Below are positions 7,548-58,300 of a DNA stretch of 64,000 nucleotides, piece after piece. The DNA is from Amoebophrya sp. A120 (taxonomy: Eukaryota > Protista > Dinoflagellata). The translations under genes were made by a program, and so were the position numbers. Under the pieces are notes generated by a model, which was given only the letters and a program-made list of their open reading frames with translations, made no database searches and was not told the DNA's origin. The stretch lies in assembly GCA_905178155.1 (NCBI GenBank), contig CAJINV010000013.1, positions 2,786,158 to 2,850,157 on the forward strand, read 5' to 3'. The first letter of the stretch is position 1; each line of letters opens with the position of its first letter.

Positions 7548-10500
7548 TCAGTCCTCTTTCGCCTCCAGAATTTCGTCGAGTTCCTTCGTTTTCAGTTCCT
7601 TTTTCTCCACTAGCGTTTTGATCTCCTCCTCTGCCGCTTTCCCCATCTCCTCCACGGCTGTCGCGACCGCCTCGGGGGAAGCGTCTGCAGCGACGTTTAA
7701 CTTCTTCAACTCCTTCGCCCGGTTCTCCAGGTACTTGGTCACATTCTGTTTCAGCTTTTTCAAAGTTCCCTTCGCCAGAGGGGTCTCTTCCTTCGTGTCG
7801 ACATTCACACTTGCATATCGAAAGGAAAAATCCCCCCTCCCCATATCGAAGCGGAAATTTCTGTTGCTGGATTTGTGTACACAAATCAGCGTTGTATTGC
7901 AGGAAGGCATTGCGACCAGATCCCCAGGCTAGGTAGGGGCGTATCGGTCTAGTTGGTCAGCATGGCAAATGCCTCGCCTTTAGGCCCAACAGCATGACAA
8001 ATCGCTTCCATAATGGGGGCGAAGCTTCTGCCCTTGCCTCCTTGCAAGACAGATGTCATTTGTGACCTCAAATCAGCAACGCAAATTTTCGGAAACATGC
8101 CTTTTTGATATGGGGAGGGGGAGTTTTTCCTTTCAATATTGCAACCGGCAACCCTTCTTCGTCCCGCTCCTTCGTAAACGTCATGTCCTCCCTATCCTGA
8201 GTAAAAACGTCCCCACACCAGAGTTGTCATGCGACTTTGCCATGACAGGAACATTTGTGATGCGCAACCCCACGACAGGCATTTTCAATCGTGTTTGGGA
8301 AATTGTAATGCTGTAAACAGGATCAGCAGATCGATTTGTGATGCGGCGTTCCTTGCTAACTTGCACTACCTTACGGACTGAAACTTGTCATGCGTGACTC
8401 ACAAAACTCCTAGGTTTGTGTTGCAAAATCCCCATCCTGACTCTGGTGTGGGTACGTTTTTACTCAGGATACTCCCGGGCCAGCAGCCACGCTTCCTTCG
8501 TCGCATATTGCAAGGCGTCTTTGCTCCTTTCCAGCTCCTTCTTCTTCGATCCGATCTTCGTTTCCAGCGACTTCAACTCCACCAGCAACTTTTTCTCCTG
8601 CTCCTGCGCCCGCTCCCGCATCAGCGCATTTGGATCCCGCAAAGTCCACTTCCCTTGCGATCCGGTGGCGCCGGCCGCCATACTCTTTCCGTCCTGCAAT
8701 TCCACACCGAGCTTCACCAAGGTTTTGTCGCGCAGGTCGTCGCAGAGGTCCAGCGTTTGCTTCTGTTTCGCACTCATCGCCTGCTGCTTCACCTCGTCGC
8801 GGAAGCTAACCAGCGCGTCCACGAAGGGCGCGACCAGTTCCTCCTTACTGACCGCACCGGCTCCACTACTCGCGTCGTTCTCGCCCAGCTCGTCGGACCC
8901 GGCGAAGACGCCGAACAGCTTCATGTATTTTGTGACCAACGCGGCGGCCTTGCGCAGGATCAAAACCCGCGGAGACCTTTGCTGCGTCTCCATCGAACTC
9001 ATGTACACGTTGCACTTTTTGATCATTTCACTCAAAATCTGCAGCACCTTCGGGTAGTTGAAGTTGTCCAAAAGCGCCTCGTGGATCTCGGCGTGGGAAG
9101 TCTGGATCATCTTGGACAATTGCTTTTCCTCGTCGCTCCAAACCTGCTCGGTGGCCGACGGGCAGCCGGCGTTCCGGATCTTTTGCTTCACGGTGCCCAT
9201 GAACGACCGGATGCGGTTGTCAAACTCCTGGGCCGTCAGCATCTGGTCGCTGCTGTAGTTCATTTTCCGGTCCCACCGCTGCTGCAGAAACGCGATGCGG
9301 AGCTGCGTCGCGGTGGTTTTCTCCAGAATTTCCTTGATAGAAAAAAAGTTCTTCAGACTCTTCGACATCTTCAGCCCCTCGATGTTCAGCGTGCCCGCGT
9401 GCGTCCAGTAGTTGCACCACTGCTGCGTGCCGTGGTAGCACTCGGACTGCGCCATCTCGTTGGCGTGGTGGGGGAACTTCAAATCCTGCCCCCCGCCGTG
9501 TATGTCCAGCCGGTCCCCCATCAAATCGGACGCCATGACGGAGCACTCGATGTGCCACCCGGGCCGCCCGAGGCCCCAGGGAGACTCCCACCGCGGCTCG
9601 CCGTCCTTGGATTTTTTCCACAGAGCGAAGTCTCGCGGATCCTTCTTCTCGACCGCCAACTTCACGCCCAGCGCGCCCTCGCCCTCCTGCATCGCTTCGT
9701 CGTCGATTTTGTCCTTGTTGCCCTTGGGCCCGAGTTTCGGGTAGTCGTGGTCGTTCTTCTCGAACTGTTTCGTGTCAAAGTAGACGGAGCCGTTGCTCTC
9801 GTACGCGCCCCCGGAAGCGACCATTGTCTTGATGAACTCCACAATCTGCAAAGTATAGTTGGAGGAGACACGAGGTTGATCAGATTTTTGTTTTTCTGAA
9901 ACCATTGAAATAAACCTGTCCTCCTCGTCGTGCCAGCACATCTACTCCTACTTCACAGCGAATAAACTACACGAGAAGCCATTGATTGTGAGGATTCAGA
10001 CAGAACTACTAGTACCTCCCAAGAAAAATCATGCTATCAATCTAAACGTCTGCAATCATCTCGTCTCCGTCTCCCAGCACGACCTTCCAAACAAAAGTAC
10101 TAAGCCATACCTGATCCACATACTCGGTGACGCGCGTGATTGCGTCCGGCGGCCGCACCCCCAGGGCGGCCATGTCGTCCCAGAAGCTGGCTTCGAATTT
10201 CCTCGCGTGGCGCTGAAAGACCATGTTGTCGGTGACAGCGCTTCCCACGGTCTCGTCGAGCCAGTCCTTCAGCTCGTCGCCGAGCACCGACGCCGCGGCC
10301 TCGAAGTCCTTTTTCTCCAACGCCACTCGCGTTTTCTCCGCGGTTTCGAGGAAAGTTTTCTGCTTCAGCTTGAACTTTTCCAACTTTTCCTGCTGTTCCT
10401 CCTCGCTCGGCGGCTTCCACCCTTTCGCGACCGCGGTCTCGATCTGCTGCTGGATTTCCGCGACTAGCTTTTCCTTCTTCGTCCGAAAGTAGTCGTCATT

Positions 10501-11896
10501 CTTCTCCGATAAAATCTTTTCCACGTCCTGGACAAAAGTCGCGCCGTTCGCCGCTAAGAATTTCCCCTCTCTCTGCTTCTTCAAATACTCCGCCAGCAGC
10601 TCGTTCTTCCGGGCGCGGAGGATAATCTTGTCGTCGATGTATCCTGAGTAAAAACGTCCCACACCAGAGTTGTAATGCAGATTTGCAAAGACAGGAAGAC
10701 TTGTCATGCGCATCCCCATGAAAGGCATTTCTAATCGTGTATTGGAATTTGTGATGCTGTGAACAGGATGAGCAGATGAATCTGTGATGCGACTGCAGTT
10801 GCTAACCTGCACTACACTGCGGAGTGCAACTTGTCATGCGTGACTCCCAAAACTCCTAGGTTTGTGTTGCAAAATCCCCATCCTGACTCTGGTGTGGGGA
10901 CGTTTTTACTCAGGATACGATGTCGGTAATGTTCAACTGGTACAGGACTTCGTACCCGAAGTAATCCTCCATCACTCGGCGCATGATGTCAAAGGTCAAG
11001 TACGCCCTCGCGTGCCCCAAGTGTGCGTGGTCGTAGACCGTGGGACCGCACACGTACCAGTTGACTCTCCGTCCCTCGTGCGGCAGGAACGGCTCGACCT
11101 CGTCTGTTAGAGAGTTTGTCATGCGCAGTCCGGAATAGCCCAGGGGGAAGGTTTCCGGGTTCGCGCCGACAATCTTCTCGTAGACCGCCGGCACGTGCCA
11201 CTTGAAATTGTCATTTTTTTCCACCACGAGCGGGGCGCCGCAGCATCCTCCACGGGCCACCATTCTGTTCGAGGGCGACGTTGTTTGTGGGACCAAAACC
11301 GCGTTGGAATCCACGTCGACAATGTTATTTGTCCGGGCAGAAGGGGAAAACTTCGTGCTTGTTCCGGCGGTGGTAGCTGGTGCGGAAGGAGAATTGGTGT
11401 TACTCTCCTGCAGCAAGTGCTTCGCAACAGCCTGATCCGCGGTGGTGGTTTTGTCTTGCGCCTGACCCATCTGGTCTAAGGTCTCCTTGTTTGCCATAGG
11501 AAAATGGATGAAGTTGTAGTTGGAAGAGCTGCGGTAATTGTTCTCGCTGGTATTGATATCTTCTGAGGTAGTTGATGAGGATGTTTTCCCTGTATTTGTT
11601 GCGGCTGCTACAGAAGCTGCATAGGTCGAGGAAATAGTGTTCCGTACACTCCTAAGGTAGTAGTTCAAGGTCGCTGTTGTAGTGACTTCCCGTCGTTGAT
11701 GTGAGTGAGAAGATGTTGAAAATGTGAATGTCAACGCTGACGAAGAAAATCTGCCGCTGGCGAGAACGAACTTGGAGTGACTTTTCGCACTCGCAGTAGC
11801 AGTTGTGGAAAATTTTCTTCTTGTAGCGGGAGAAATCGTTGCGGTTCTAATTTTCTTCAGGGTAAACGTGGCTGCAGCGCTTTTGGCGCTCCACAT
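7548..11896 (-). CDS. CARS: Cysteinyl-tRNA synthetase (class I), 5 exons; alternative start at 11497
   Basis: YVCGPTVYDHAHLGHAR (HIGH), NITDI|DDKII, WESPWGLGRPGWHIECS, DIHGGGQDLKFPHH, KMSKS; canonical GT-AG intron 9846-10110; three introners. Confidence 0.97.
7816..8138. mobile_element. Introner family C (323 bp)
   Basis: TIR TATCGAAAGGAAAAATCCCCCCTCCCCATATC; TSD TTGCA. Confidence 0.93.
8193..8471. mobile_element. Introner family B (279 bp)
   Basis: TIR TATCCTGAGTAAAAACGTCCCCACACCAGAG; TSD CTCCC. Confidence 0.95.
10640..10917. mobile_element. Introner family B (278 bp)
   Basis: Family B TIRs; TSD CGATG; splits the CysRS NITDIDDKII motif. Confidence 0.96.
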
Positions 11897-12673: not shown

Positions 12674-15265
12674 TCACACGTCCGTATTTTTGTAGTTTGC
12701 CGGGGTTTTCGGCCTTTTCATCGCCACCGTGGGGTTGACCGTCCGACTGGCGTTCACAATTCTGGTGGCGCCGGAGTTATCAACTGCAAATATGTCTTGG
12801 TCTGGGAGATTGCGAGATTTGTAATGCTAGTCTGGCATGACTCTGAACTCTGTATTGCGTGGCCGCGGGCAGCTCCTCTTACCTGTCAACATGCAACAGC
12901 GCAGTTTCCCATGCGGAGTACGCAACTCAGAACCACGTCAAGACTTGTCATGCTCATGCTGGGCAGCGCATTATAATGTTTTCACTATTCCCTTCTTTGC
13001 ATCACAAGTCTCCAGACCCAGACCACATTTTTACATTTGATAGGAGTGGGCGGAGAACAAAGTTCGGCCCAGTGTCGTGTTCAACTTGATTTCCGAAAAC
13101 GCCTGCCGTTGCAAAAAAGACCCCTGCGGCCCCAAGCCGGTTAAGCCCGTCGCCCGTGGCGGCGTTTGCAGTTTGTCCAGGTACAGATTCCCGCCGAAGG
13201 GCGACATCATGGGCGGCGGGAGGAGCGTGTTCTGCAGGCTATTCGAGGTTTCGTAGTCCATAGACGCAATGCCCGCGTTGGTGGAGGCAAAGCCGTCAAC
13301 CTGTGTTGGATCAGTGTAAGCAATTCGCATTAAAGATTTCTTTACCTCATGCGGTGAGCGATAGGAAGAAACACGCCATGCGACTATTGACGCACGACCA
13401 GTAGGTCGCGATGTACGATAAACTATATACGTTTTTCACAAAAAGCTGCACTCAGACTTACCTTCAACAACCTCTGAAACATCTCCTTGGACAGGACGCC
13501 TCCGCCCTTCATGCCCGCACGAAAGTCCGCAAACACCTTCTGCCGCCGCTTCCACACGTCGCTGGGCTCCCCCATGCAGAGGGGCCAATTCACCGAGACG
13601 TAGGCGGAGATGTGAATCTCGTCGACGCGGCGCCGGTGGCCGAGCTGAATGAAGTCGCCGCCGGGTTTGATCTTGGGCACCGGCTTTTTCTCCTCCTCCA
13701 CATCCTCGTCATCCGAAACTTTCGTCGGATCGTCCTCCGATTGCTCGGGGTACAGGTCCTGAGAATGTTTTGTGGTTTTTGATTTTCAGAGTGGATGCTA
13801 CATGGTTCCTATTTCTATTGCGTTTTGAATAAAACTTATCCACCTATTTGTATGCCATTTCTGAGTCAAACAGCAAAATCTTCCAACTACATGCAAATCA
13901 ACAATTGAACCGAGGACCACAGAACCAAGCGTTCCACTTTGCTACTGTAAGTACCCCTCTCCCTCCCGCCGCCCGGGAGTGCACCAAGTCCCTGTGCGAG
14001 GGCGGGATCCGCAGCATATTTGCGGAAAGCGGCACTTCATCGCTCAACAAAACCGTCGACAGCTTCTCTTTCCGCAAATGCATCGGCGCAATCGTCAGTT
14101 CCTCGAATGCGTCCTCGAATCAAAAGGAAAAATCCCCCCTCCCCATAATGATGAGGTGCGTTTTCGAAAATTTGTGTTGCTGATTTGTGACAACAAATCG
14201 GGTCTGTTTTGCAAGTCGGCAACTCCACCGGCTCCGCCGCATTATGCAGGCGGTTTGTCATGCTGTTGGGCCTACAGCGCGGACGTTTTTCATGCTAAGC
14301 GCCTACACAAAAACCTCTCTCTTCAGGCTCGATAGGGGCCTGCAGTCCTCTCCAGCATCACAAATCTGATTTGTGTACGCAAATACAGCATCACAAATTT
14401 CGTTTTCGATATGGGGTGCGGGGATTTTTCCTTGTGATACCTCGAAATACTGGTTCAGGTTCCGGCCCTGCATCAAGTGCTGCGCTCCGTGCCGCGAGCT
14501 TCTGCCGCCGGGCGTGCTCGGCGACTTCAGCCCACGGGAGGACGCTGGGGAAGCCTTTATTTGCTGGTAGTTGTTGTGCTGACTCTGACTCACGCCCCCG
14601 GGCGAGCTCGGCGTCGGTTTAGGTGAGCTGATCCGGTTCGTGATGCCCCCCGGCGCAGGAACTACGGGGGCTCCGCCGCCTCGGGGGCTGGGCTTGGGGG
14701 AATACCGCGACGCCACCCGCTCCGGACTCGGTTGGGTTCGCGTCCTGCCGGGGGACCTGGGGCTGCGGTTCGGCGACAAAGCTCGGGACTGGGACCGGGA
14801 TCGGTTTCTTCTCCGTGCTGAGCTTTGCGCGGAACTGGGCCGAGATGGGTGTCCCGAGGTCAAGCCGAGCAGGCTGGCTTTGTGGGGCGGATCTTGCTGC
14901 AGCATGTCGCAGAGGTCGTACAGGGTCATCGCGTCGTAGAGCTCTTTCCCGGACTGATACCGCGACTCGTACACCTTTTCCTTCCGGATCTGCAGCGGCG
15001 AGGAAGCGGCATTGTCCAGGTTCTCGTTCTCGAGGAGAAAGTCGATGTTGTCCTCGATCAGCTCAAAGTGCGAGAGAAATAACCGCACTTTCTTCTGCTC
15101 GAAGTCGATCTTGTATTTTTTCTCATCCCGGGCCCGGGCCTCCTTGAACACCGTTTCTCGGATCTCCGCAACGGAGGTCTCACCGGGAAGCTCCAGCTCC
15201 AAATTCCCGCCCGCCAGCGAAAACCGGTGCACAATCACCTTTTTCACTTTGGACTCCCCCGTCAT
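12674..15265 (-). CDS. Uncharacterised protein with possible N-terminal ubiquitin-like domain and S/P/R-rich region, multi-exon
   Basis: ORF 14303-15265 continues QYFE|DAFEELT across 14118-14439 and SAHS|GATRIV across 12778-13042; UBL call is by eye only. Confidence 0.55.
12778..13042. mobile_element. Introner family A, diverged (265 bp)
   Basis: TATCAACTGCAAATATGTCTTGGTCTGG...CCAGACCACATTTTTACATTTGATA; TSD GGAGT. Confidence 0.9.
14118..14439. mobile_element. Introner family C (322 bp), opposite orientation to 7816-8138
   Basis: AATCAAAAGGAAAAATCCCCCCTCCCCATA...GATTTTTCCTTGTGATA; TSD CCTCG. Confidence 0.92.
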
Positions 15266-18524: not shown

Positions 18525-21500
18525 CTACGGGACCTCCTCCACCGTCCGCACCAAGTTGGGCTTGCTGTGTGCCAAGTAGACTACGTTTGCGAACTCCGCT
18601 GGATTGTCTACGTACAACTGGTGCCCCGCGTTATTGACAAAGTACACCCCGCCTTCCCGGTACGACGCATCAGGCGCTGATGGCAACATGCTGGTAGACT
18701 TTGCGGCAGAAGTGCTGTTTGATGTTAGTGCAGCCTCGCTAGAAGGAGATTTGGTAGTTGTACTATCTTGTCCAACATCTTCCGATGCAGCTGAAAGAGT
18801 TCCACTTGCGCCACCCTCCCTGGCCGTTTCGTAGTTCAACTTGAATTTTACCAATTTCACCTGGCTTTGCTTCATCCGCTGGACGAATTCGGGCGAAATC
18901 GGGTGCGGGTTCTCCGTGAGCTCGTCGCTGGAGTCCAACCGGGTCAAAATTTCCGGGCTCTTCACAAACTGCAGCATATCAAATGTAAAAATGTCTGGGT
19001 CTGAAAGAATGCCGAATTGAAATTGATGCCATGCTGTTTTTGCATGACACAAAATGTCTGTCATGGAAGCCCTAGCATCACAGATTTCGAGAGGCTTCCA
19101 CATTGCTTAATCCGCATGACAAATCCCCCATTTTGGAGCCAGGAAATGGGCACCTTTTGTTGCCCTGCATGAGAGATTTGTTTGTGTTGTGAAATGCGCA
19201 TCACAAGTTTGCATCCTTCCAGATCCAGACCCAGACACTTTTACATTTAATACAGCAGCCGCTGCGACGACTTCACGTCCATCCAATCATTGGGGTAGCC
19301 GTAGATGAAGCTGATCCCACCCTGGATCTGCAGCTTCAGAATCCGCTCCCCGAGCGGGCGTTTGGCGCAATATGAAAGCGTTTCACGGCTCCCCTTCGTC
19401 TCCCCATCACTTGGATGTTGTAGCTGCCGTCCGTAGCAGCACAAGCGCTGGCAAAGATCAGGCAGCTTGCTTTTCATGACAAAAAATTAGGCACGACCGA
19501 TTCTGGTGCTGTCTCGGCTTCCGGAACAACAAGAAAAAGAATCTGTTATATGCACAGTAGTGGCAAAAAATGTGCTGCTGGCAAAACCAAAAGGTGCACG
19601 TCGATTTTTTGATAAGTTCGTGAATGAGAAATAAAAGCGAGGGGGAGCAGCTGTGCACTAGGGTACGTAGGCACCGGGATGGAGTAGGGCGGAGATCATG
19701 TACTCCGCCGAGCCCTCCTCCGCAGCATAGCAGTGGTAGAGGTACTTCCCCAGGTTTTCCCGCGTGAAGGACCGGCCCGACCGGTCGGACATGCCCTTGG
19801 GCAGACCGGTGACTTCGCAGGCTTTGTCGGTGTCACCGTCCATCCCCCGAATAAATTTGTCGGTGTTGCTGTACTTGGCAAATTGCCCGTTGTCCACGAA
19901 ACGCTTCTGCACATAGGCCCGCACCAACGCCTTCCCGCCGAGCGGCTTCCCCAGGAAACGGACGACTTCGAAGGGAGTGAAGTCGTTTTCCCAGAGGCTG
20001 TACGCCGTGTTTAAAAGCAGCTTCGCGTACCACGGCCGCTCCTCCATTTTCTGCTTTCGCACCTCCGCGTTGGGCATGCGCGCGATGCCGCAGGGCGAAG
20101 CGAGAATCAAACTCGTCACGTGGTTGGGAAACTTCTCCGCGTAGCACACCGACAAGTAGCCGCCCATGCTGTGCCCCACCAGAATATCGATCTTCGTGTC
20201 CGGCCCCAGAATTTGCTGCCGCCACATCTCTATGGATTGCAAATATGTCTGGGTCTGGAAAGTTGGAACTTGTGATGCTGGTGTTGCATTCCTGTGCAAT
20301 CTGTATTGCATGACCAAGAACAGTGGTAGCCTGTCTCATGTCATACAAAAACACAGTTTCATGCGGAGTTCGTATGAGAAAGCGTGCTGCAGCCTTGTCA
20401 TGCTTTATTCCTGCATAAGAAAGTGACTTCCTCTTGCACATTTTAGCATCACAAATTTGCAGACCCAGACATTTTTGCAGTTGATAATCTCCAGACTGTA
20501 GATGAAAAAGGACTCCGCTTGGTCGACCTTCCGCCGGATGGCCGACTTGGTCATGCTCCCTATCCTGAGTAAAAACGTACCCACACCAGAGCTGTAATGC
20601 AGATTTGCAAAGACAGGAAGACTTGTAATGCGCATCCCCATGGGAGCCATTTGCAGTCGTGTTTTGGAATTTGTGATGCTGTGAACAGGATGAGCAGATG
20701 AATCTGTGACGCGGCTGCACTTGCTAACCTGCACTACACTGCGGAGTGCAACTTGTCATGCGTGACTCACAAAACTCCTAGGTTTGTGTTGCAAAATCCC
20801 CATCCTGACTCTGGTGTGGGTACGTTTTTACTCAGGATACTCCCGGCGGAAGCGTTAGTAGTTTCGTCGTCCTTTGATTTGTTGAAAAACGTCCACTTGG
20901 GGCGCGAACTGAGCCCCCACCCGAGCCAGTCGATGGCGTGAATAAAGTGGTCGGGAAACTTCTGCCGCAAACTGGGCACCACCATCCCCCACGTGGCGCA
21001 CCCCATTCCGTAGCCCGGACACAGCACGATGTGCTTGAAATTGGATCTCTCGACGCGTCCTTTCGACGTAGATGTTGATGAAGCGCTGGACAGAAATGAA
21101 CTATTGCTTCTGGCATCTGTTGACATGCGCTGTTCAGCAGAGGCCGAAAAATTCTGTGGGCGAGCCGTGAACGAATGCATCCAGTGCAAATTGGTGCGGT
21201 TCTTCTCTACTTCCACTTCGGAATCGCGTTCGCCGTCCGGCTTTTTAGCCTTACTAGCCAACGAACTTCTTGGCGAACTACAGGCGGACGTCAAAACCCC
21301 TCCCCTATCGCTATTCCTGTTCTTCGAGTTCCCAGACATGGCGGACAGGTTGGATGCTCGGTTTGGAGGCTGAAAGAACTTGGTGCCATTTATTTCAATA
21401 CTTGCTAGTTGCCAATTGTTTTCCTTGTCCGGTCCCAGTGGAAGACTTTTTGTGCTTTCCACCCTTTGTTCGTCAACATTTTTAGTACCGTCGTCAACAC

Positions 21501-23744
21501 CGTCTCCATTGAAGGACTCGACGTCGATCGTACCCCGTTTTCTTGACGGGTCATTGATGATGGCGCCCTCAACGCCAGCTGCATCCACGTCGATTGTGCC
21601 ACTCCTGAGTAGAAGCTTCTGTCGTGTCTTCGCTGTTGCAGAAGTAGTGCCAGAATCTACACAATTATTGTCGCTCTCCTCTGCTTTCCGCAAAAAAGCA
21701 TCAGATAATGCCAGTGAAAGTCATATACGCGACCACCACTTGTCGAAGATACATCCCTTCGTAAAAGCTATTTATGAAGCCTACAGATGTAGATTGCCAC
21801 ATGGCCCTCATTCTTCAATACTTCTACCTACAGTTGTACAAAACTAAAGACGGCAAGATCATCCACATTCGACAACTTGCACATCCGTTCCTGTTCACCC
21901 GCATAAAGATTGACTCATCTTTACAGCAAAAAAGCAAGCAGCGGTCGCATAGTTTTCATCACGCTCTTATCAGGTCATCCGTTCCAAGCCTATCCAAGTG
22001 GTCGACGTCTCCCGCACTCGTTGCCGACACATGCCGTGAGGTCGCCGCACTGTTGACTTCGGTACTGATGACGTGGTTTCTATTTCCCCGTAGCTGCAGG
22101 TGCTGCTTTCCATCGAGCGAAACGATCACGTCGTTGAACTCTAGATACTCGTGCATGTCGTAGAGAAACCGCTTTTATTACAATGAAAAATGCCCCCTCC
22201 CCATATCAAAACGGAAATCTGTGATGCAGATAAGATTTGTGGTCACGAGTCAGCTTTGTGATGCTAGAAAGCAAAAGATGCGGATTGTAGTGCTGTCTAG
22301 CGTGGGAAAGCCTTGCAGCTCCAGGATGACAGTAGGCAACTGGAAGTGGGAGACAGCATGACAGATTACCTGCAATTTAGGCCGCGGCTTCGTCTCTTGG
22401 CCTTCTAGCAATACAAGTCGATTTGTGTACTCAAATACAGCGTCACAAATTCGCGCATCTTCCGTTTCCGATATGGGGAGGAGGCTTTTTTCACTTTGAT
22501 AGCTTTTCCGCCTGAATCAAGTGCTGCCGAGAGGAGGATTTCCAGAATTTGCCCCACTTAAACCCCTATCAAATGCAAAAATGTCTGGGTCTGGAAGATT
22601 CCGCGATTTGTCATGCAGTTTTTCCAAGCTCCACCAAGTCTGGAATGCAGGGCCTAGCATCACAGGTTCTGCAGCCCCTTGGTGATGCCCATTATGCATG
22701 AGAAATGTCCTCGCAGCATGGCGAGATATGGGGACCTTTTGCAAGTCATGCAACACAGATTTTTGTATGATCCGCAACACGCATCACAAGTTCGCCGTCT
22801 TCCAGACCCAGACATTTTATTTGCATTTGATAACCCCTCGTCCTCCTTGGTTCCGGAAACTGACGGCTCGCTGCTGTTCCCCTCGTCGTCGACGTCGTCG
22901 TTCCCGTGCAGAGCTTATACAGTGCAAAAATCTACTACTTTGCGCCCCGCTGCTCGCGACTTTGTGTTGCTGTGCATGAAATATTTTCAAAGCCCGACAT
23001 CAAGGATTGGCTCAATAGTAAGTTGTCCCAATGTTCTGCCAGCACGAGATAAAATTTGCTCAGTAGTGGTCTGACGCAGATACCGCTGCGCGTAGTAACT
23101 TTTTTTAGCACTTTGAATAATACCCAGTTAACAAAGTGCAGCACTTTCTACATGGCAAACTGAAGGCGGGGTAGAGGGGCGAGCAGCAGAACTACAATTT
23201 ACTTTGTCTTGCATAGAACTTCCTGCTGCTGCACCACGTGCACATCCGCGCCGGGCGGAGCTGCGAGCGCAGGAGCTGCATCCGGTTCTTGTTGTTCCCT
23301 TCTCCCGTTCACCCAGGCATTTGGATCCCTCTTCTTCCGGTTGCTTTTCGAGGTATGTGCTGTGGCTGTACCAGACAAGGAGGCTCTCTCATCTTGTTTT
23401 CCATTTGTAGTTTTCGCCCCTGATGCTGCAACCCCCACGACTTCTCCCTCGGGACGAGAGCGGGCGGAAATTGTAGCATCATTCAGCTGCGGTAGGGCAG
23501 AAGAAGAAGTTTCGCTATTTCTGCCTGAATCTTCTTCTAGCACGGCCTCTCGACTGGAGTTGGCATCATTTACAGTGGAAGACGTGGACCCCCGACTGCG
23601 ACCGTCGTCCCGCGTTGTTCTTTCCGAAGATTCCCTCGAAAAAACCTCGGCACTCGCGTCCGGAACCAGATCGGGCGGCGGCGCTGGGCTCGAGGTTGGA
23701 GAGGATGTTGAGCTCGACATCAACGAGGCTGCAGTGGCCAGCAC
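18525..23744 (-). CDS. ABHD4/ABHD5/Cld1-like alpha/beta hydrolase, multi-exon with long low-complexity insertions
   Basis: FWKSSSRQHLIQAEKR, LCPGYG, AIDWLGWGLSSRP, LVGHSMGGYL, LILASPCG, PGAY|AKRPL, SFIYG..DWMD, NAGHQLYVDNP. Confidence 0.88.
18977..19252. mobile_element. Introner family A (276 bp)
   Basis: Family A TIRs; TSD CAGCA; joins SQRLL|QFVK. Confidence 0.93.
19371..19665. mobile_element. Putative aged introner / non-canonical intron without a recognisable TIR (295 bp)
   Basis: TA...TA ends, 3/5 TSD CGCAA/CGTAG, typical length; removal yields the conserved HPGAYAKRPL. Confidence 0.6.
20231..20486. mobile_element. Introner family A (256 bp)
   Basis: Family A TIRs; TSD ATCTC; joins YSLE|MWRQQ. 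Confidence 0.92.
20561..20839. mobile_element. Introner family B (279 bp)
   Basis: Family B TIRs; TSD CTCCC. Confidence 0.95.
22176..22501. mobile_element. Introner family C (326 bp)
   Basis: TATTACAATGAAAAATGCCCCCTCCCCATATC...CACTTTGATA; TSD GCTTT; joins QAEK|RFLYD. Confidence 0.9.
22567..22832. mobile_element. Introner family A (266 bp)
   Basis: Family A TIRs; TSD ACCCC; joins EDEG|FKWG. Confidence 0.94.
22916..23215. mobile_element. Diverged introner, candidate family D (300 bp)
   Basis: Starts TATACAGTGCAAAAAT, ends GCATA; TSD GAGCT/GAACT; frame restored QQE(V/A)|LHGNDD. Confidence 0.7.
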
Positions 23745-24814
23745 GAATGAAGATTAATATGTATTTTACTTTTCCGGTCAGAATTTGGGTTGAGAATCAC
23801 TTGTACAGAATAGTCAAGGTTTGGATAAGGTTGATTCGAGTTGCGCACACAGGTGTAGCTGCTCGCCAGGAGAGGCTCGCGGCCAATCCCAGGGAAAAGC
23901 AAAAGTCGTACAAAAGGTAATGATCCAATAAAATGAGGTCTTGCGGTGGCATGCATAAACCGATACCAGGTTCATTTTCTACAATTTGGCCTCAGGACAG
24001 AATCAGAATAGATATCGTGCGGGAAGAAATTTCAATCGGACAGCTTCTGGATAGATGCAGCTTTAGCTACCACGTAGTTTGTAGGGGCGCAGACTGTTTG
24101 TGTCGTTGGAAGATGAAAATTGCAAGGTGAACTTCAGTAAACAGTAATACGGCCGATCTTCGTTGTTAATATCACCGATCCACAAACCGATAGATACAGT
24201 TTCCTGTTTGGTACACCGCCAAATCATGCTGTATCAGTCCCGAATCAGTTTTGAGGCTTTTCTTTTTTTCGTTTTGCCAACATTCGTTTCATCTGCACAA
24301 CCGACGACCACTCTCGACGTATAAATTAGACCGATAATTGAGCGTCGTAATTCGTCCTGTGATCGAGTGATATATTCTAGTACCTATAACCGATGGCGTG
24401 CGAATTCACATAGCAAGAGCTGAATAATATCCAAAATTCGCGACGACGATCTGGTGACCGAAACTTGACTCTATGTCGGTACTCGACAGTAAGTCGTCTA
24501 CCTACACCTAGACCTAGTGCTCTTTGCAGCATAATAGAACTATTTCCCAACTGGAACACTGTGTGGCTTTCAACTCAGCTCTCTGCTTTGGTCTTCTTTG
24601 TAGCTTGTTCACCAGGAGTGGTAGAGGCCGCTAATAGATATCCAAAAAGCTCCCTGTGCTGTTGTCGCACAGACGACGCTGTATTCTTGTTGTTCTTGCG
24701 CTACTTAGATATGAAAGGTCTCCCTTGCCGCTCCTTCTCACTTCACGACATGGTGCTGGGCGCGATTTCATACTATTAACCCCGTTTCGGCTACTTCCCC
24801 CTCGACTTGGCCTT

Positions 24815-43321: not shown

Positions 43322-45022
43322 TCAAATACATCGGCACAGTGTCAGTTGTTCACCACATTTCCTATTAGTGCAGCACGGCTCATAAAAAATACTTATGCTG
43401 CAACTCCTGTTCTTGATCTTCTCTCCGGATCGAACATCTTTCACTTCTGCCGGCATAATTTGGCGACCGGCCAGTTTCGTTGTACGAGGCAGGATATCAA
43501 ATGCAAAAGTGTCTGGGTCTGGAAGAGTGCAAGATTTGTCATGCATATTTCTCATGACCCATGATGCCTGTAATGCCTGCCCTAGCATCGCAGACTTTTA
43601 AAGGGCTTCCTGATGCACCTTCCGCATGAGAAATGCCCTGTCCGTGTAGCAAAAACTGCACCCCTCTTGCTGGTCATGCAATGCAAATTTTTTTAGAGTC
43701 CAAAAACAGCACGACAAGTTGCAATCTTCCAGACCCAGACATTTTTGCAATCCATACAGGATGATACCCAGCTCCCGCGGCCAGTTCCCGCTCCCCCGAT
43801 GCGGGACTGCTCGCGTAGGGACGTCCGAAAAGGTGCTCGTAGATGTGAAACGACTTCTCGGACAGCTTGCCCGCGAAAAACATCAGGACTACGGTTGCAG
43901 CATCCCAAGAAAAAAATCTGTGCAATGTTGCCGACATCTCCTTCGTAATGCCGACATCGCATTAACAGCGACGAGAAGATACAACTCTAAACAGGACACA
44001 TCGTTGCAAATTCTCTCTCACGTTTTGACTACAAATGGTACGAAAAGTATGCCAACCTATCGGAGCAAGGCGAGCGGCAGTAGTACAAATTTCTGTCACA
44101 ATCAAAAAAAACGAGCTGCCGTCCTCGCGCAGATTTTTTCCTGGATACGCCGGGACGGAGCCTTTCCAGGGAAACAAAAGCCACACCAGGAGAATAGCTG
44201 CGAACATGAAAGCCACTATCCCGGTGCGTGAAACAATAACCCAACCACCATCAACAATATACTCTGAAAATCCCTACCCTATGGAGAAATCAAGTATCGC
44301 TTTTGAAGCAAACTTTCGATGCAAAAAGTAAATGCAAATGGACCTGCTTTTGCTGTCCCCCCTGACGGCGCGGCTTCCTCAAGTGGCAACGTGATAATTG
44401 TAAACCCAGGTGCTGTGAAAGGAGGACCTGCACAACTTTCACGATCTCTACTCGCACTAAAAAAACGATGCTGTCCTCGCGGAGAGGTTTTATTGTTCAC
44501 ACGACACAAGGATAGAAATGATGCCGAGAAAGGTGAACTTGATGGCAATTTCGTGCGCGTTGGAGAGTACCATCACGGCGTAGTCCATAGCTGCCGCGTT
44601 GTCCCCCCGCAGGGCCTTCCCAGGACCCCACATCGAGCACAGGGTGGAGATCATCAGCACCGTGAAAAACGACCCAAAACATGTGGTCGCGACGAACAGA
44701 ACAATATCGGGTGTAAAAATCAAGCATTCATAACCGCTCAGATTCCCGCACTTTCCGCCAGTATACCCAAGCGATTTTGCGAGAATGCAATACTAGTGCA
44801 AAAGTGAAGATTGTAAGTATTAACTATGTTGGATTCTAGAAGGAAATTGGATTTCATTCGAGTAAGCGGAACGGGTGAAGGACCGCCTCCTCGCTCTGCC
44901 TCCGACTTAAGCAGCACTCCATATAAAAAATTATCCATGTTGATTACTAGCTGACCATGAATTTTGTACAGTAAGTAGGTGTAGGCATTTCTTTCTGACC
45001 GCATAGTAAGTAAGCTCTGCAA
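43322..45022 (-). CDS. Uncharacterised multi-pass membrane protein; exon structure and ends unresolved
   Basis: Hydrophobic exons VLFVATTCFGSFFTVLMISTLCSMWGPGKALRG and AFMFAAILLVWLLFPW. Confidence 0.45.
43495..43756. mobile_element. Introner family A (262 bp)
   Basis: Family A TIRs; TSD CAGGA; closely similar to 276-575 and 47242-47503; host frame not resolved. Confidence 0.95.
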
Positions 45023-47184: not shown

Positions 47185-48940
47185 TCAGTACTTGATTCTT
47201 TTGCGAGAGATAGGCTGCACGAATTGCAACGCCTGGCCCTGTATCAAGTGCAAAAATGTCTGGGTCTGGAAGATTGCCGGGTTTGTCATGCATATTTCTC
47301 ATGATCCATGATGCCTGTAATGCATGACCTAGCATCACAGACTTTTAGAGGGCTTCCTGATGCACCTTCCGCATGAGAAATGCCCTGTCCGTGTAGCACA
47401 AACCGGACCCCTCTTGCTGGTCATGCAATACAAATTTTTTTAGAGTCCAAAAACAGCATGACAAGTTGCATTCTTCCAGACCCAGACATTTTTACAGTTG
47501 ATACCCTGCACATTCGGATCTTCGCTCAAGCTGACGGCCTCGGTGATCTTAGCCAGAATCCACTGCCACGTAAAAAGCCGGATTTTTAGCTCCTCCTCAT
47601 TTTGGAAACCGTTCGGGCTCAGCAGCTCCAGCTGCTGCACTTTGCGGATGGAAACGAGGGCGGCCTGGGAAGAGTTGTGTCTATATTATAATAATTTCGC
47701 AGATTCAACAAAGATCAACAAGGCAGTGCAGTTCAATACCGCTTGGAAATTCTCCTGCGTCTGGTACACTCGCTTTTTCCGTAATTCCTGTGCATCTTGT
47801 TCACAATTGTAGCGGCACATCGGCAAATATACGGGATCTACTTCAACTTCCTGTACAATAAATACAGCTTTTGAGTACCTTATGGATGACGTCTCATGAT
47901 CTTCACATTGAAGCATAAATATTTCTCCACCGATAATACCTGTCCGGGCGGCAGGGGTGCGGGCAGCGCTGTCCTCAGCTTCTGCATCTCGTTTTGCAGC
48001 CCGTCGATTTCTGCTTGCAGCACGTCTTTCTCCGCTGCACTAGTCTGCCGGAAGTCGGTCACTTTTGCTGCACAGTTTTTCTCCCCGAGCTTTTTTTCCT
48101 CTGCCACCGCGGTGTCGACCTGTTGTTTCGCTGTCATTTCCATCTTCGCAACTGTGCTTTGCACGGCCTCTGCTTCGATCCGCTTGGCGTCGGGACACAC
48201 GACGGGGCTTGGCTGCGCTTCCTTGTTTGCAAGGGTCTTGTTAAAGAGGGTCCGTGGTAAAATTCCACCCAGAAATAACGCGCTGTCGCCCAGAATCTTG
48301 ACTTCAAGAATCTCTGTTTGTACCAAGGCGACAGTGCCGACCAGGAGGATCAGCGTGGAGAAGCAGGTGGACACGAAAAGCGATTTCGCGACAGATTTCG
48401 CGGAAGAACTTGAGGCAGCTGCTTTCGAATTGCTCGGATGGTGGTTGTTCTCATCCCCCGTGCGTGGCGTGCTGGCCGCGGTAGACGGGGGCTGGGTGTC
48501 CGCGGCGCTCTCGCCACCGGCCGCCGGATTGTTCTTCGTGGGTCTCTCTCAACTGCAAAAATGTCTGGGTCTGGAAAGAACTTGTGAATGCGGCTTGGAT
48601 AATCTAAACGTCTCAAGAACTGCTGGCCAGGCATGACAAGTTTTTAAGTTCCTCTTACCAGGTGTTGCCTCTTCTTCTTCTTCTTCGAAAAGGAAAACAA
48701 AAACTGCGTCACTGCATGACAGAAATAAACTGGGGGTGTGTGGGTCACGTGCATGAGAGACTTGAGTCATCTCATCGTCATGCTGGCCGAGCATGACAAG
48801 AAGTCCGAGCTTCTTCATCCACATCCAGACCCAGTTTTCACATTTTCCATGCGTAGCGACCGGTTTCTCTGCCGTGACTTGGTGGCCGTCGGGGGAGACT
48901 TGGCGGCGCTGCGCGCCTTCTGCTCCGCTTTCGAAGGCAT
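47185..48940 (-). CDS. Uncharacterised single-pass membrane protein with coiled coil; 3' end uncertain
   Basis: MPSKAEQK... exon, TM segment CFSTLILLVGTVALV, coiled coil; frame continues across two introners. Confidence 0.5.
47242..47503. mobile_element. Introner family A (262 bp)
   Basis: Family A TIRs; TSD CCCTG. Confidence 0.95.
48547..48855. mobile_element. Degenerate family A introner (309 bp)
   Basis: TCTCAACTGCAAAAATGTCTGGGTCTGGAA...TCCAGACCCAG...GCGTA; TSD eroded (GTCTC/GCGAC) but frame kept. Confidence 0.7.
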
Positions 48941-49925: not shown

Positions 49926-52900
49926 TCACTGTGCCCCCGCCTTCGCGTTTTTAACCTGTTCCGTGAGTGCCTCCAATTTTGGTTTTTCCACCTCTTCGGT
50001 GAATTTTTCCGGGTTCAGAAACCGTTCCTGGTCCCACAAATACCGCTCGCGCATCAGCTCCTGCAGTCGCACATTCCGCTTGTCCGACTCTTTATCCCAT
50101 GCGTTCTCGAACACGTCCAACTCTTTGGTCTTGGCGTCCCCCTTCTTGACTAATCGCTTCCCCTGTTGCCCGCTCCAAATCTTCTGCAGTTCCAGCAACC
50201 TCTCCCGGCCGGACTGCTGCATGCCGGTCTCGCGCAATTTCTGTTCCACTTCCTCCTTAGTGTAGTGCCCCTTCTTCAGCAAAGCTGCCCGCTGCTGTTC
50301 CACGCTCGGGTTGGCCGCCAACATGCGGCCGATCTCCTATCGTAAAGAAAAATCCCCACTCCCCATATTGAAACCGCATCCGTCTGAAAATTTGTGATGC
50401 ACATTCGTGACCTCAAAGCTTGTCTGTCTTGCAAGCAGGCAAGTCCAGAGAGCCCCCTGCATTTTGCAGGCGGTTTGTGATGCTGTTGGGCTTAGAGCAT
50501 ACACGTTTGTCATGCTAGGCGGCTACGTCAAAACCCCTCGGCCGAGGCTTGACATATGCCTGCAGTCCTCTACTGCAAGACAAATCTGATTTGTGTACGG
50601 AAATCCAGCATCAGAAACTTCGTTTCGATATGGGGAGGGCGGATTTTTCCTTCTGATATCTCCTCGACCGTGACGAAAACGTTGTTGGTGCCGTCGAAGT
50701 ATCCAGTGCAAAAAATATGTCTGGATCTGGAAGAGCGCAAGATTTGTCATGCTGTTCCGGCATGACTCTGAGCTCTGTATGGCGTGGCCGCGAACAGCTC
50801 TCTTGCCTGTCATTCAAAAATGCAGTTGCTCATGCGGGATACGTAACACAGAGCCACGAAAAAACCTGTCATGCTTGGCGGTGCATTACAGTCTGCCATT
50901 TGTTCGCTGACTTGCATCACAACTTTCCACACCCCGACATATTTGCAATGCATACGAAGTCGGGGCGGACCGAAAAGTCCATGCCGGAGGACTTTCCGGC
51001 GGTGTTGTGCATCCTTGCGTTGAAGAACCACTCGGCACGGGGGTAGTGCTTGGACACGTAGGTGCCGAACTTGGTGTTGTAGAAGATCGGGGTGGACACC
51101 CGTCCGTTCCCGGTCACCATCTGCTTGCGCGTCATCATCACGCGGTGCCACATGGACTTCAGAATCGCGGTCGATTTCGGCTGGTTCGTGATTTCGTTCC
51201 GGATGATCAGGTTGAACGACGTGTTGGCCTCGAGAAAATCGGACAGAAACAAAAACATGTCGATGTTCTTGTCTCCCTTGATTTTCGCCCACTGCTTCTT
51301 CGCGGACTTCTTCATCTCGTTCGGCCTTTCCTTGATTTCCAAATCCCCGGTGAACAGTTCCAGCCCCTCGTCGTTCGGCGCCGGGATCAAGGTCATGGCG
51401 CAGATGTCCGTGTGCGACCCCGCCCACAGCTTTTGCGTTTGCTCGTCCTCCTGGTCCGACTCGCTGTCGTTCTCCGCGCTGGCCGCCTGCGCGAGAGCCG
51501 CGGACGTCACGGGTGCGGTGGGAAACTGGTCGCGCCGTCCCGGGTACCTGAGCATAGCAGAAGATTGGTTGTTCTTCATCTCGTCTTGATAGTTCATCCT
51601 CATGCATAGTAGTTTTTCGTACTTTTAGTTTTACACAAATACTGCACAAAAGATTTTTGCACGAAGTAGATGATCTTCCGCGTGGTCATCTTTTTGGCGA
51701 TTATTTCATGCACTCGATGCATTTATTTCCGCAGACTCTACTCCTCAAATCCGATAGTACAAGAGGTACATCAATTATTATGTCCGCTATTTATACCACA
51801 AGTTTCGACTGTAGCCCGACTGCTGGTCATTTTCGAAATCGAAGAGCCTGACCTCCGCCAAGTACCGCAGCTGCTCGTCGATGTCTTTCTTCATGGACTT
51901 GGCTAGTTGCGAGAAAATCACCTCCTCGACCTTGTTCGTCGGCTGCAGAAACGAAGAGTTATTTCGGCCATTTTGGGCGACACCACCGCTAGCGGTTGTA
52001 GGAGCCGTAATGTCGATCATGTATTCGACGATGTTTTTTCTCCACTCCGCCTCTGCAAGCTCCTGGGACCCTTGCGTTTCTTCCTCCGCCGAGTCCGGCA
52101 AAAGCTGCTGGACCAATTGCGCGTTACTCCAGTTGGTCTTCATGTCCAGCAGACGGGCCTTCATGGTGTCCAACATGCTGGTGACCTCGAGCTGCAGTGC
52201 CTTCAGCACGTCCTTTGCGAACGTGTGCGAGGCTCGCAAGTAGATCGGCATCAGTTCGTGCAAGTGAAACGTGGGCTCTCCGGTGGGGACTTGTTTGTTG
52301 AAAAGCTTCGCCTGTTCCTTGCTGTAGTTCGAAAGCTTTTCGAGGAGCGACTTTTGCAACAAAGCCGGGACGGAGTCTTCTGCGAAAGTTTTCTGCTTCA
52401 ACGTGGTCAAGCCGCTGCGTTTTGATTTGAGTTGTTCACATGAAGGCAGTAGTAGATGCATGCAAAACGATACAGTTTTGGTTTTTGTCGTGAACAAGAC
52501 CACGCATGTTGCCGAGGGAGGAACGTTTGTGATGTTTGAATTTCAAACTAAACTAGTATCAACAAAACTCCGTATCAAGGATACCTCTGCACGCGGACTT
52601 CCATCAATTCCCTCAGTTCGGCAATGCGCTTTTTCTGCATCTCCCCCTCGTTCTCATCCGGAAAAGGAAACCAGCGCACATCGATGCTCCACTTGTTATC
52701 GGCAACCTTCTGGCCCTCGGCCTGCTCCCCCGGAGGGACGATCATGGCCCAAATGCTGCTCGAAGGGTCTTCGCCGAAGGCCTCCGCCATATTCGGCTGC
52801 TCTAACAGCATGCGATAGTTCAGCATGATGCCGATTTCCTGCTGGATCCAGCTGATGCCCTCCAGGAAAGTCAGGCTAAACGATTCTATCGCCTCGGAAG

Positions 52901-53620
52901 CGAGATCACCTTGAAAAACGCCACCACCTCCTCCCACCAGGCCCCCACACAACAATCCGCCGCCGCAAAGAGAGCTTGCAAGAGAAGCAATGGAGGCGGC
53001 GGGGGGCTGCTGCGTATCAAAATGCAACAAACACGAACACCACAGGTACTAGTACAAGCGGCTGGAGATAAACGTAAAATAAAACTTTTAGTTCCCGTTG
53101 ATGTAGTAGTGTAGAAGACCTGACACAGTGGTCGCATATCTTATCGTCTGAATGCAAACCTTCCAAATATGAAATTTTGCTTTGGGTATGGCTCGGGGAT
53201 GGGATGGTCGTCGTGCTTTTCCAACTTGGATATGTGATCGTCTTTGTGCTGTAAACCAGCGGCTCCTTGACCTGGAACGGGAAACGCTTGCGAAGACCTG
53301 TGGAAGTTTTTTGTGCGTGGTTTTTTCTCACACTTAAACTTGAACGTCGTCACCACGCCGACTTTTCGTCGACGATCGTGCTCCTAATACAAATTTTTGC
53401 TTTCACTTTCACTGTACTTAGTTGTACCTTCTCCCTTCAAGCCCACCAATCCCTTTCCGCCCTTCATCGGGCCGCCCTTCACAAGCAGCTTTGCCAAACT
53501 GGTGGCGTCTTGCACTTCCAGAACCGGAAATTCATATTTCTCGGTCGTTGCAGCTGGTTCGCCAACCACCGCCGCTGCACCTCCGCTACTCAAAGCAGCG
53601 GCGGTTGCGGACTTAGCCAT
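49926..53620 (-). CDS. Uncharacterised multi-exon protein
   Basis: Series of minus-strand ORFs; VRPDF|DGTNNVFVTVEE|IGRMLAANP joins across two introners. Confidence 0.55.
50338..50658. mobile_element. Introner family C (321 bp)
   Basis: Family C TIRs; TSD TCTCC. Confidence 0.93.
50700..50954. mobile_element. Introner family A, diverged (255 bp)
   Basis: TATCCAGTGCAAAAAATATGTCTGGATCTGGAA...GACATATTTGCAATGCATA; TSD CGAAG. Confidence 0.88.
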
Positions 53621-55399: not shown

Positions 55400-58300
55400 T
55401 CACGCCGCCGCGACGTTCAAGCTTTCCATGGCTTCCACTAGTCTTGGTGGAATCGCCAAGGACGGGTATTTTTCCCGCAGCGTTTTCAAAATCTCCATGG
55501 ATTGCTGCAACAACGGGCGGCCGGAAGCGAAAAAGATTTCCATCACCTCCAGTTTCTCCTTGAACTCGCGGTTTTCGTACTTTTCCACCGCTTTTTTGAA
55601 CTCCTTTATCGAAGGAAAAAACTGTGTTAGTGTAGGTCTCTTGGGAAAACAGCATGACAAGTTTGTCTGCCATGATAGGAAAAACTTGTCATGCGCAGAT
55701 AGGGTGGGAAAACACGTAGGAAGCGAGCCTATCATGCATGTGAAGCATGACAAGCGTAACTGTTTTGCATTTTCTGCATCACGGACTTACACTTACAGAG
55801 TTTTTTTCTTGCATATCCTTGTTTTCCGTCACGATTTTTCGATACCGTTCCTCGGTCTGCGTCACGTCCTGCATCAGTTCCTGGGCAACGTCCAAAGCCT
55901 CCTTGTCCTCCTGCCGCAGCATGTGCAGCTCCTCAATCTGCTCCTGTTGCAGCTCCAGTTTCGGCTCGTACTTGTTGATCAACTGCTCCAGTTCGGCGTT
56001 TTTCAAATTTGCAACCTCGATCTGGTCGTGCAGCTGTTTTATCTTTTTCCCGAAGTCCATAGTATTGGAGGAGTTGTTGTTCGCCTGATCCTCGATCTGC
56101 TGCTTCAAGCGCTGGTTCTCCGCGAGGAGGGCACCTTTTTTCATTTGTGATACGTGTCTATATCGTTATCGAGCGACAGAATTTTTGCATGTTGACACAA
56201 GTTTCTACTTGCAGCTTTAACAGGTCATGCATAACAAAAAAAATCTAAACCTTGTTTCTTTCCTTCCTTATGGTGCCTTTCCAGCTCCTGTATCTGACGG
56301 TGGTTGTCTTTCTTCAACTTATTGATCACCGTTTCCATGCCCTCCACGATGGCCTCCAAGTTCTTCTCTCGCTTCGACTGTGGCTGCGCTTTGTTCGACG
56401 AGGAACTTGCACTACTATCTCCCGCTGTTTTACCCGAGGAATTCCTCCCCTTCGGCGAGACCGGCTGGTTGCTCTGGTTGATCAGTTCCAGTTCCCGGAT
56501 CCGGTTTTGCATGCGGTTGAATGCTATGAATTGCAAATATGTCTGGGTCTGGAAGGTCATGCTGTTTTTGCATGACGCAGATGGTCTGGCATGGAAGCTC
56601 TGGCATCACAGGTTTCGAGAAGCGTTCCCAATGCCGAATCCGCATGGCAACTCCCTGATTTTGGTGACAGAAAGTGGGCATCTTTTGCTGCCTATGCATG
56701 AGAGGTTTTTCTGTGTTCTGAAATGCGCATCACAAGTTTGTATTCTACTTCCAGACCCAGACATTTTTGCACTTGATAAATTTCGTTTCCCACTGCGTCT
56801 TGTCGAACAGGTATTCCATGGTTTTCATCTCCTTCTTTTTCACGTCGGATTCTAGTACCCGGATCTGCTTGGCGTAGTCCGCCGTTAAATCTTCCAGCTT
56901 TCGCACTTTCAAGTTGATTGTCATGTATTCCTCCTCCCGCTGCGCCCAGTCGTCCCCTAACCGGATCGACTTCACCCGCTTCAACTCGAACTTCACCTGC
57001 TCGCACTATCAAAAGGAAAAATCCCCCCTCCCCATACCAGAACAGAATTTCTGATGCTGCATTTGCGTACACAAATCGGGCTAGTCTTGCAGTAGAGTAC
57101 TGCAGACATATGCTAAGCCTGAGCATAGAGGTTTTGACATACCCGCTCAGCATGACAAAAGTCTACGCTGTAGGACCAACAGCATTACAACCGGCTGGCA
57201 TAATGAGGCCGACTCTCTGGAGTTGCCTTCTTGCAAGACAGCCAGGATTTGTGATCACAAATCTGCATCACTAATTTTCAGCCGGCTGCGTTTTTAATAT
57301 GAGGAGGGGGGATTTTTCCTCACAATACGCACTGCTGGTTCACCTTGTCCAGCTCCTCCTGCAATTGCTTCGAGTTCAGCTTCTCCTGCTCGAGCAGCTC
57401 CTTCGCGTCAATGGTTAATTGCTTTTCCATCGTCTCAATTTTCGACTCCAACTCGAAAATTTGACTGCGATACTGGTCCGTGGTCTTCAACTTTTCAATC
57501 TCCGCGTTGCTGGACTTGTTCTGGTGGTGCTCGAGCTCCGCTTGCAAGTTCTTCACCTGGTCTTCCAACTTCTTGGAGTTCTCGCGGATCTCGTTCGCCT
57601 TGCTATTCTCCTTGTTGATCAGTTGCACTTTGTGAAATTCCTTCTCCAAGTAATCCTTGTGCTCCTCGGCCTGCTTCAACTGTTTCCCGAGGTTCTCGAC
57701 CTGCTTCTTCAATTTGCGCGCGAGCTGCTGGTCCGCGGTTAACGTGGCTCCTCCTGCTTTAATACTACTCGAGCCCTTGTTCGCAGCTTCCTGCTCCAGA
57801 GGTGGGAGGTTAATATTGTTCTTTGCCGATTTCATATTCGCGCTTGACGTTATCCCTCCTGCGATCTTCCGCAGGGGGAAATCGCGGAGAATCACCTTGG
57901 ACACCTCGTCCGCTAAGCACATCCCGTTTTTATCTAAAATCACCAGCAAGTGGAGCTTCCGCACGGTTTCCAGCTTCAAGTTCAGTTGCCGGGCGAGATG
58001 TCCGCAGAGACTGTGGAACAAAACTCTCCCTGTTCGGAGGGGGTCGAGTTCCTTGAGTAGTTTTATTAAAGAGAGTTTCTGCTGGTTCAACGCATTGTGG
58101 ATTACCGACACCGCCGGCATCGCCTCCGTCCACTTACTCGCGTTGTTATCGTTATTACCGTCGTCCTTCGCCGCTTGAATGGACTTTATCAGGAAGTCCA
58201 ATTTCAAGAGGTTCTGCTGGTTCATGTTCGGCTGCTCGCTAGACGAGGCTCCTGCTGCGTAGTCTTGCTTCAAGACCAAAAACTCAAAAATCCTGGAAAT

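Follow-up and report, generated by a model that had tools for sequence, protein, structure and literature searches.

Introner elements of Amoebophrya sp. A120 share TAT ends, a 5-bp duplication and a spaced internal box, and may have been spread by one integrase-like transposase lineage

What moved the roughly 30,000 introner copies when no transposase has been found, and by which route are such copies spliced out? Both questions stand open in the text of the published accounts. We address them from a stretch of 64,000 nucleotides of the dinoflagellate Amoebophrya sp. A120 (GenBank assembly GCA_905178155.1, contig CAJINV010000013.1, positions 2,786,158 to 2,850,157 of the forward strand), the whole of which is called the window. 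It carries 28 TAT-ended copies of 209–343 bp, making up ~12% of its length, and these are almost certainly the published introner elements of A120. The host is A120 itself: an exon of the cysteinyl-tRNA synthetase (CysRS) gene encodes a sequence 100% identical to the NCBI A120 protein and 65% identical to that of A25, and a second gene of the window shows 100% identity to an A120 protein. Like MITEs (miniature transposable elements with inverted repeats), the copies are short and non-coding, have terminal inverted repeats (TIRs) and a target-site duplication (TSD), and are numerous (421 in 12 families of at least three copies). Like A120 introners, they combine TIRs with a boundary direct repeat (DR) within the published 3–5 nt and are removed as non-canonical introns, as seen in a transcript contig, in the gene model and in a reading-frame test. 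The text of Farhat 2021 (PMC7789003) describes A120 introners with inverted-repeat ends and DRs of 3–5 nt and prints the end motif as TAT, seven loose bases and at least three A.

The elements, their end motif and the failure to classify them are thus already known. An earlier prediction made from this stretch alone, which proposed that a single enzyme lineage recognises TAT-N5-G-N-AAAAA, restated a published motif and overstated it. What we add is modest, namely a spaced internal box and removal that is blind to orientation. Taken as a whole, the evidence makes it probable that the elements are non-coding inverted-repeat introners that duplicate 5 bp and were likely spread by one integrase-like (DDE) transposase lineage, predicted to bind the internal box and to cut at TAT.

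Termini and direct repeats

The window was searched without assuming TAT, for exact 5-bp DRs accompanied by at least 13 inverted matches in 20, with ten shuffled sequences as control. This yielded 42 pairs, 18 of them with TAT at both ends, while each shuffle gave 11–22 pairs and none of this kind. TAT begins 53 of the 56 ends of the 28 copies, and G stands at position 9 (G9) in 47. The published A120 introner motif, in the form TAT-N7-AAA, fits 52 ends; the strict TAT-N5-G-N-AAAAA fits only 33. The five end sequences quoted in the original prediction for families A–E were all recovered where it had placed them. Its statement that the duplication is always of 5 bp is right in that this length dominates, but the repeat is exact in only 22 of the 28 copies, the others having one mismatch or, at 56525, two (Table 1).

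A larger sample was collected with the family-A end pattern from a single metagenome assembly (JACKZZ01), giving at least 160 loci (L001-L160) and 693 kb, overlaps included. Among the loci listed, the copies nearest to window copies share 90–95% identity with them, and there is no overlap with the window in unique sequence. The curated set used below holds 421 elements, 22 of them from the window, in the 12 families. The original prediction had named such a sample as the place where its pattern might vanish. TAT and the 5-bp DR persist there, with TAT at both ends in 294 of 326 pairs that have both DR and inverted repeats. Repeat length was scored in 514 candidates picked by their TIRs first, a collection that includes spurious internal pairs and in which lengths above 10 bp were left unscored; the exact repeat measured 5 bp in 319 candidates, 4 bp in 5 and 6 bp in none.

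The remainder of the proposed motif fares less well. Family-balanced frequencies over the 421 copies are 0.98–1.0 for TAT and 0.89 for A at position 13, and 0.49 for G9. In families 5, 6 and 7, where the A-run is lost, neither the strict pattern nor TAT-N7-AAA fits any of the 28, 22 and 20 ends. Because they are absent from these three of the 12 families, which never match the strict pattern, G9 and the A-run do not form a general recognition code. Of the proposal that one enzyme lineage reads TAT-N5-G-N-AAAAA, what stands is the common end chemistry, that is TAT and the 5-bp duplication, and the single lineage finds better backing in the internal box; G9 and the A-run fall away, and the constraint on the ends may come from an enzyme or from the splicing machinery.

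The mixing of TATCAA and TATGGA ends within single copies, reported earlier at 20231, 28731 and 43495, is real and remains once the copies are oriented. At position 4 the two ends of a copy are independent across 202 family-A copies (Fisher p=1). Variation at positions 4–8, for which pairing is not needed, was likewise borne out, with 0.087 substitutions per site against 0.076 in the interior among nearest neighbours. At positions 10 and 14 of family A, agreement between the two ends of a copy exceeds that between random ends (0.71 vs 0.57 and 0.73 vs 0.53), an excess that is absent at positions 4, 5 and 7.

The DRs have a GC content of 0.56, which describes insertion sites that are near-random and slightly GC-rich. 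Among 143 coding insertions (window plus L001-L160), the DR begins at codon positions 3, 2 and 1 in 75, 44 and 24 cases (p~1e-6); base preference at the target sites is weak. Of 24 coding copies whose DRs differ by a single mismatch, 18 have it at codon position 3, against 54% expected if one repeat copy were free to change (p=0.027). The wobble excess, from a small sample, hints at a constraint on both copies of the repeat, such as a cut site that varies would impose.

The internal box

All 12 families carry an internal box, TGTNWTGC, at a density of 14.4 per kb within elements, compared with 1.7 outside them and 0.16 when the elements are shuffled. Counted from the element end, the first box is mostly found at 33–34 or 43–44 bp, and the modal spacing of boxes on the same strand is 31–33 bp in nine of the 12 families. 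Pairs spaced by 31–33 bp occur in at least a quarter of the copies in ten families, where the null expectation has a mean of 0.69 families and a maximum of 4 (2000 trials). In each of the five families tested, box columns are conserved above the interior, with 0.030 against 0.076 substitutions per site. The box points in the sense direction of transcripts 316 times and in the antisense direction 314 times, and family B copies, whose boxes have a single polarity, were found in both orientations to the transcript. On these two observations an RNA motif was rejected; since the box has no strand preference in transcripts, it is likely a double-stranded DNA site. It is absent from the two non-TAT palindromic elements and the three canonical introns that were examined.

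We regard the box as the likely binding site of the predicted transposase, repeated about three DNA turns apart. Being shared, along with its spacing, it speaks for a single system behind the many families, and a single mobiliser lineage using the box seems probable to us. A transposase supplied in trans would bind boxes phased at three helical turns; so bound, it would bring the ends together and cleave at TAT, and insertion would follow with a 5-bp stagger, positions 4–8 serving as a spacer.

Some further details of the box may be recorded. In families 1 and 10 of the loci, boxes at the ends point outwards, and the last box of family 10 overlaps the terminus; the TAT end may therefore derive from an outward-facing box. 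Two elements with palindromic ends of other kinds, TTGG and TACT (L054:2011-2333 and L026:11405-12270), contain zero boxes. The box may resemble paired-domain sites; the match found in a Sleeping Beauty paper was a primer. That boxes decay ahead of the TIRs, as a few old copies suggested, found no support within families.

Removal from host transcripts

The original prediction overlooked that the elements are introns. In the CysRS gene, positions 4–57 of the Pfam profile precede the element at 10640 and positions 58–108 follow it. A contig of sample X1, taken as RNA by guess, joins 10918 to 10634, so that 10635–10917, the element plus one DR, is missing; the same contig also lacks the GT-AG intron at 9846–10110. 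A 49-nt gap in X1 corresponds to 8139–8187, the exon that separates the element at 7816 from that at 8193. Joined together, the CysRS pieces give an open frame of 1120 residues in which NITDIDDKII is restored as in A25. One-sided X1 boundaries occur at 6020, 12778 and 14118, and contigs of run X5 retain elements. The A120 gene model omits the element plus 5 nt at 50338, 50700 and 52904. More broadly, of 344 testable copies in the window and the loci, 143 show a continuous coding frame once the element plus 5 nt is taken out, against 2–5 for out-of-frame lengths. Runs X8 and X9 of raw reads are no evidence either way: they contributed only 11 reads and 2 reads, which gave depth in 4/30 and 1/30 bins and none over the CysRS exons.

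A canonical spliceosomal intron would have GT-AG borders and a fixed orientation, and was rejected on both counts. The DRs show no GT/AG bias, 5′ and 3′ ends are alike in transcripts, and the elements lie at random with respect to the direction of the host gene (32:30 in family A; 10:3 in family B, p=0.09). Folding predictions for 12 copies gave every one of them a terminal stem, whichever way it was oriented. Removal that is blind to orientation and without GT/AG bias narrows the splicing route to one in which a symmetric structure is read. The ends would fold into the terminal stem in either orientation, drawing the two DR copies together; cutting and joining would then take place inside the DR without need of GT-AG, and the mRNA would therefore be restored exactly. 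A wider proposal can be put forward only tentatively: all TAT introner families may descend, as non-autonomous elements, from one unnamed lineage of DDE transposons marked by TAT, the 5-bp duplication and phased TGTNWTGC pairs, with their stems removed by an orientation-blind, structure-guided cut-and-join without GT-AG.

At 55816–64000 of the window (minus strand), removal of six elements, each with one DR, extends a frame of 1185 codons to 1998 codons with EF-hand domains; no close relative was found.

Table 1. Introner copies and a host gene in the window (positions are those of the window; DR, direct repeat; IR, inverted repeat)
Feature	Position	Strand	Remarks
Host cysteinyl-tRNA synthetase gene	7551..11896	-	Matches A120 protein P0001; three introners and GT-AG intron 9846-10110
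Family A introner	276..575	.	DR exact
Family A introner	6020..6282	.	DR 4/5; X1 piece ends at right boundary, upstream DR copy included
Family C introner, CysRS gene	7816..8138	.	5-bp DR search, X1 49-nt gap
Family B introner, CysRS gene	8193..8471	.	Same-strand boxes 8225, 8256, 8304, 8337, 8386, 8417 (pairs 31, 33, 31 bp)
Family B introner, CysRS gene	10640..10917	.	10635-10917 absent from X1 contig
Family A introner	12778..13042	.	X1 contig resumes at 12772
Family C introner, left end AAT	14118..14439	.	X1 piece ends at 14440
Family A introner	18977..19252	.	DR+IR search
Family A introner, unlike ends, alpha/beta hydrolase gene	20231..20486	.	DR+IR search
Family B introner, hydrolase gene	20561..20839	.	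DR+IR search
Family C introner	22176..22501	.	DR+IR search
Family A introner	22567..22832	.	DR+IR search
Family D, single decayed copy	22916..23215	.	DR 4/5, two boxes, no BLAST match in 421-element set
Decayed copy, B-like ends	27150..27492	.	DR 4/5
Family A introner, unlike ends	28731..28992	.	Boxes 28788, 28821, 28860, 28914, 28945
Family C introner	39580..39889	.	DR+IR search
Family A introner, in reverse orientation to 28731	39937..40198	.	DR+IR search
Family A introner, unlike ends	43495..43756	.	Boxes 43537, 43569
Family A introner	47242..47503	.	DR+IR search
Family C introner	50338..50658	.	A120 gene model skips 326 nt
Family A-like introner	50700..50954	.	A120 gene model skips 260 nt
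Introner, old and decayed, GAT/TAT ends	52904..53232	.	No box; terminal stem retained; 334 nt skipped by gene model
Family E introner	55607..55815	.	Belongs to 36-copy family in larger sample
Family A introner	56525..56778	.	DR 3/5
Family C introner	57007..57327	.	DR+IR search
C-like introner (family 9)	60879..61184	.	DR+IR search
Family B introner	61248..61526	.	DR 4/5
Family B introner	61640..61921	.	Catalogue copy
Family C introner	62428..62734	.	DR 4/5

Beside the copies in Table 1, old decayed copies at 26344–26678, 44705–45062, 43901–44147 and 3660–3985 have TAT-like ends, a predicted stem and 0–1 boxes; among the old copies, gene-model backing exists for 52904–53232 only. At 22567, a few reads of run X8, too few to judge, join the family-A end to another flank, which may be another locus or strain. 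A 24-bp tandem repeat at 24793–24912 appears to be coding. Further frames, all on the minus strand as are most genes here, encode an alpha/beta hydrolase (19658–21720), a weak WD40 match (29733–30755) and a thioredoxin domain (41258–41785).

The mobilising enzyme and known systems

If one transposase lineage spread these elements, where is it? Several results weigh against our reading. Pfam found no transposase or integrase domain in 359 de-duplicated ORFs (open reading frames) of at least 170 aa from the loci, nor in 66 of the 221 window ORFs. Nor did any long TAT element seen carry such an ORF, the long pairs being nested or non-coding (631–1104 bp), besides two chance pairings. The text of Farhat 2021 likewise reports that no transposase was found in A120 and argues against general transposase-mediated mobilisation. 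The families share further internal modules; common descent may therefore account for part of the box signal, and the families are less independent than the null test assumes. Boxes are still constrained in the most diverged copies (0.045 vs 0.143), which speaks against a role purely in transposition, so that they may also act after insertion. A few very old copies have lost their boxes and kept their ends. The larger sample is a single metagenome assembly chosen through the family-A end, whose strain relation to A120 is not established. The RNA evidence consists of contigs of the one sample labelled by guess, with one junction complete and two obtained by arithmetic. Finally, the frame test fixes the frame only and cannot single out 5 nt, a removal length of element plus 8 nt giving continuity in 140 of the 344 copies.

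The continued constraint on box and TIRs in diverged copies could also mean that the host imposes both: in a gene-dense genome, only insertions readable by a splicing or chromatin factor would survive, and unrelated transposons would converge. The old copy at 52904–53232, an annotated intron which keeps TAT/A-run ends and stem and has no box, fits this account, as does the reported lack of U1 snRNA in A120 (Farhat 2021, in its text). We nevertheless consider it unlikely, for boxes have no strand preference in transcripts, constraint is equal in coding and uncalled copies, and it is the inserting enzyme, and not splicing, that sets a uniform 5-bp duplication.

Within the window and the 0.69 Mb of loci listed, no autonomous partner with these ends was found. 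Two long TAT elements with exact DRs and boxes, L022:505-1608 (1104 bp) and L028:632-1465 (834 bp), may have arisen from an autonomous element by deletion. Pfam matched neither of the two ORFs scanned in the former, and those of the latter are all shorter than 170 aa and hence below the scan threshold. Four patterns gave 0 matches in viral contigs. Prokaryote genomes gave 0 and 2 matches, both of the latter inside ORFs without a partner end and put down to chance. Rfam gave 0 matches.

As to the kind of enzyme, we see an even balance between an integrase-like (DDE) transposase on one side and a hAT-like or other enzyme on the other. hAT transposases bind arrays of subterminal repeats, and the mobiliser might be of hAT type (hAT5-like, with a 5-bp duplication), the boxes being hAT-style subterminal repeats. 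This is improbable: the ORFs scanned contain no hAT domain, hAT5 is classed among animal hATs, and the only coding hint for A120, family 38 (TA/TA, 5 bp), is Copia/Gypsy-like according to the text of Gozashti 2025 (PMC12130899). Long copies of some A120 introner families, which bear Copia/Gypsy domains in the same source, point in turn to long terminal repeat (LTR) retrotransposons, whose integrases yield 3–6 bp duplications; the elements would be by-products resembling solo LTRs or miniature terminal-repeat retrotransposons (TRIMs), made through such an integrase or copied through spliced RNA, and the text of Farhat 2021 prefers copy-paste. TIRs of ~30 bp, mosaic interiors and random orientation to the host transcript speak against this origin, and among TAT-ended pairs of 600–15000 bp no same-family copies share an outer 5-bp duplication round a coding interior; we judge it very unlikely. 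For the transposase lineage that we favour, the box provides a handle, being a specific probe for autonomous elements in genome scans and for protein pull-down, and together with orientation-blind removal it makes both mobilising enzyme and splicing route easier to test.

The original prediction could assign TA termini with a 5-bp TSD to no named superfamily, and our comparison agrees: none matches in both terminus and duplication length where both are testable. Only two of the 58 A120 families in Gozashti 2025 bear a superfamily name, one Mutator and, for family 38, Ginger, the other 56 having none, so that the failure to classify is also that of the literature. Integrase-related groups typically have TA..TA or TNT..AYA ends, or duplications of 4–6 bp, which counts in favour of our reading. 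As described in the texts cited, IS3EU and GingerRoot share the TA..TA termini (PMC10045372, PMC6839031, PMC12730594); fungal IS3EU ends in TAYGG, compared with TATGG here, and is alike in its little target preference and GC-rich TSD. Their TSD is, however, 6 bp, a length seen in 0 of the 514 candidates, and GingerRoot TIRs, at 100–150 bp, are unlike those of our elements. Ginger2/TDD agrees in its TSD of 4–5 bp (5 bp for TDD-4/5; PMC2836005) but differs in its TGTNR termini, TAT being found here in 294 of 326 pairs. IS481EU agrees in its TNT..AYA termini (PMC10045372) and differs in a TSD of ~4, 15 or 25 bp, exact 4-bp repeats numbering 5 of 514 in a scoring that stopped at 10 bp. hAT5, compared by TSD length, has the same 5 bp, and the CMCT group (CACTA/Transib and kin) was rejected since its CA..TG termini differ from TAT. 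In their working the elements resemble MITEs, by our guess those of an integrase-like transposon, and they have been placed in none of the named superfamilies.

From the introners of Farhat 2021, which belong to the same organism, the elements do not differ in identity as far as the text goes; the internal box, its 31–33 bp spacing, the families without A-run and the orientation test go beyond that paper's text and legends, its figures not being covered. We did not meet TGTNWTGC in the texts, legends and tables consulted, those of Farhat 2021 and Gozashti 2025 among them, or in literature searches, although figures and subscription papers (e.g. Roy 2023) may show it. Family lengths near 149, 209, 260, 278, 305 and 320 bp given in Gozashti 2025 match families here. 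The dataset of that paper lists '5-bp TSD, TA/TA Termini' for family 38, which its main text describes as lacking Ginger homology and Ginger termini. That family is ~808 bp long with Copia/Gypsy-like ORFs, none of which was found in our material.

A parallel to the elements is offered by the nonconventional introns of euglenids, which according to the texts consulted (PMC11282704, PMC12501133) also have a terminal stem based on TIRs, TSD-like repeats at the junction, borders other than GT-AG, a likely MITE origin and a splicing machinery that is unknown in euglenids. They differ in belonging to another lineage and in having a CAG/CTG code at fixed spacing, and the likeness implies no common ancestry.

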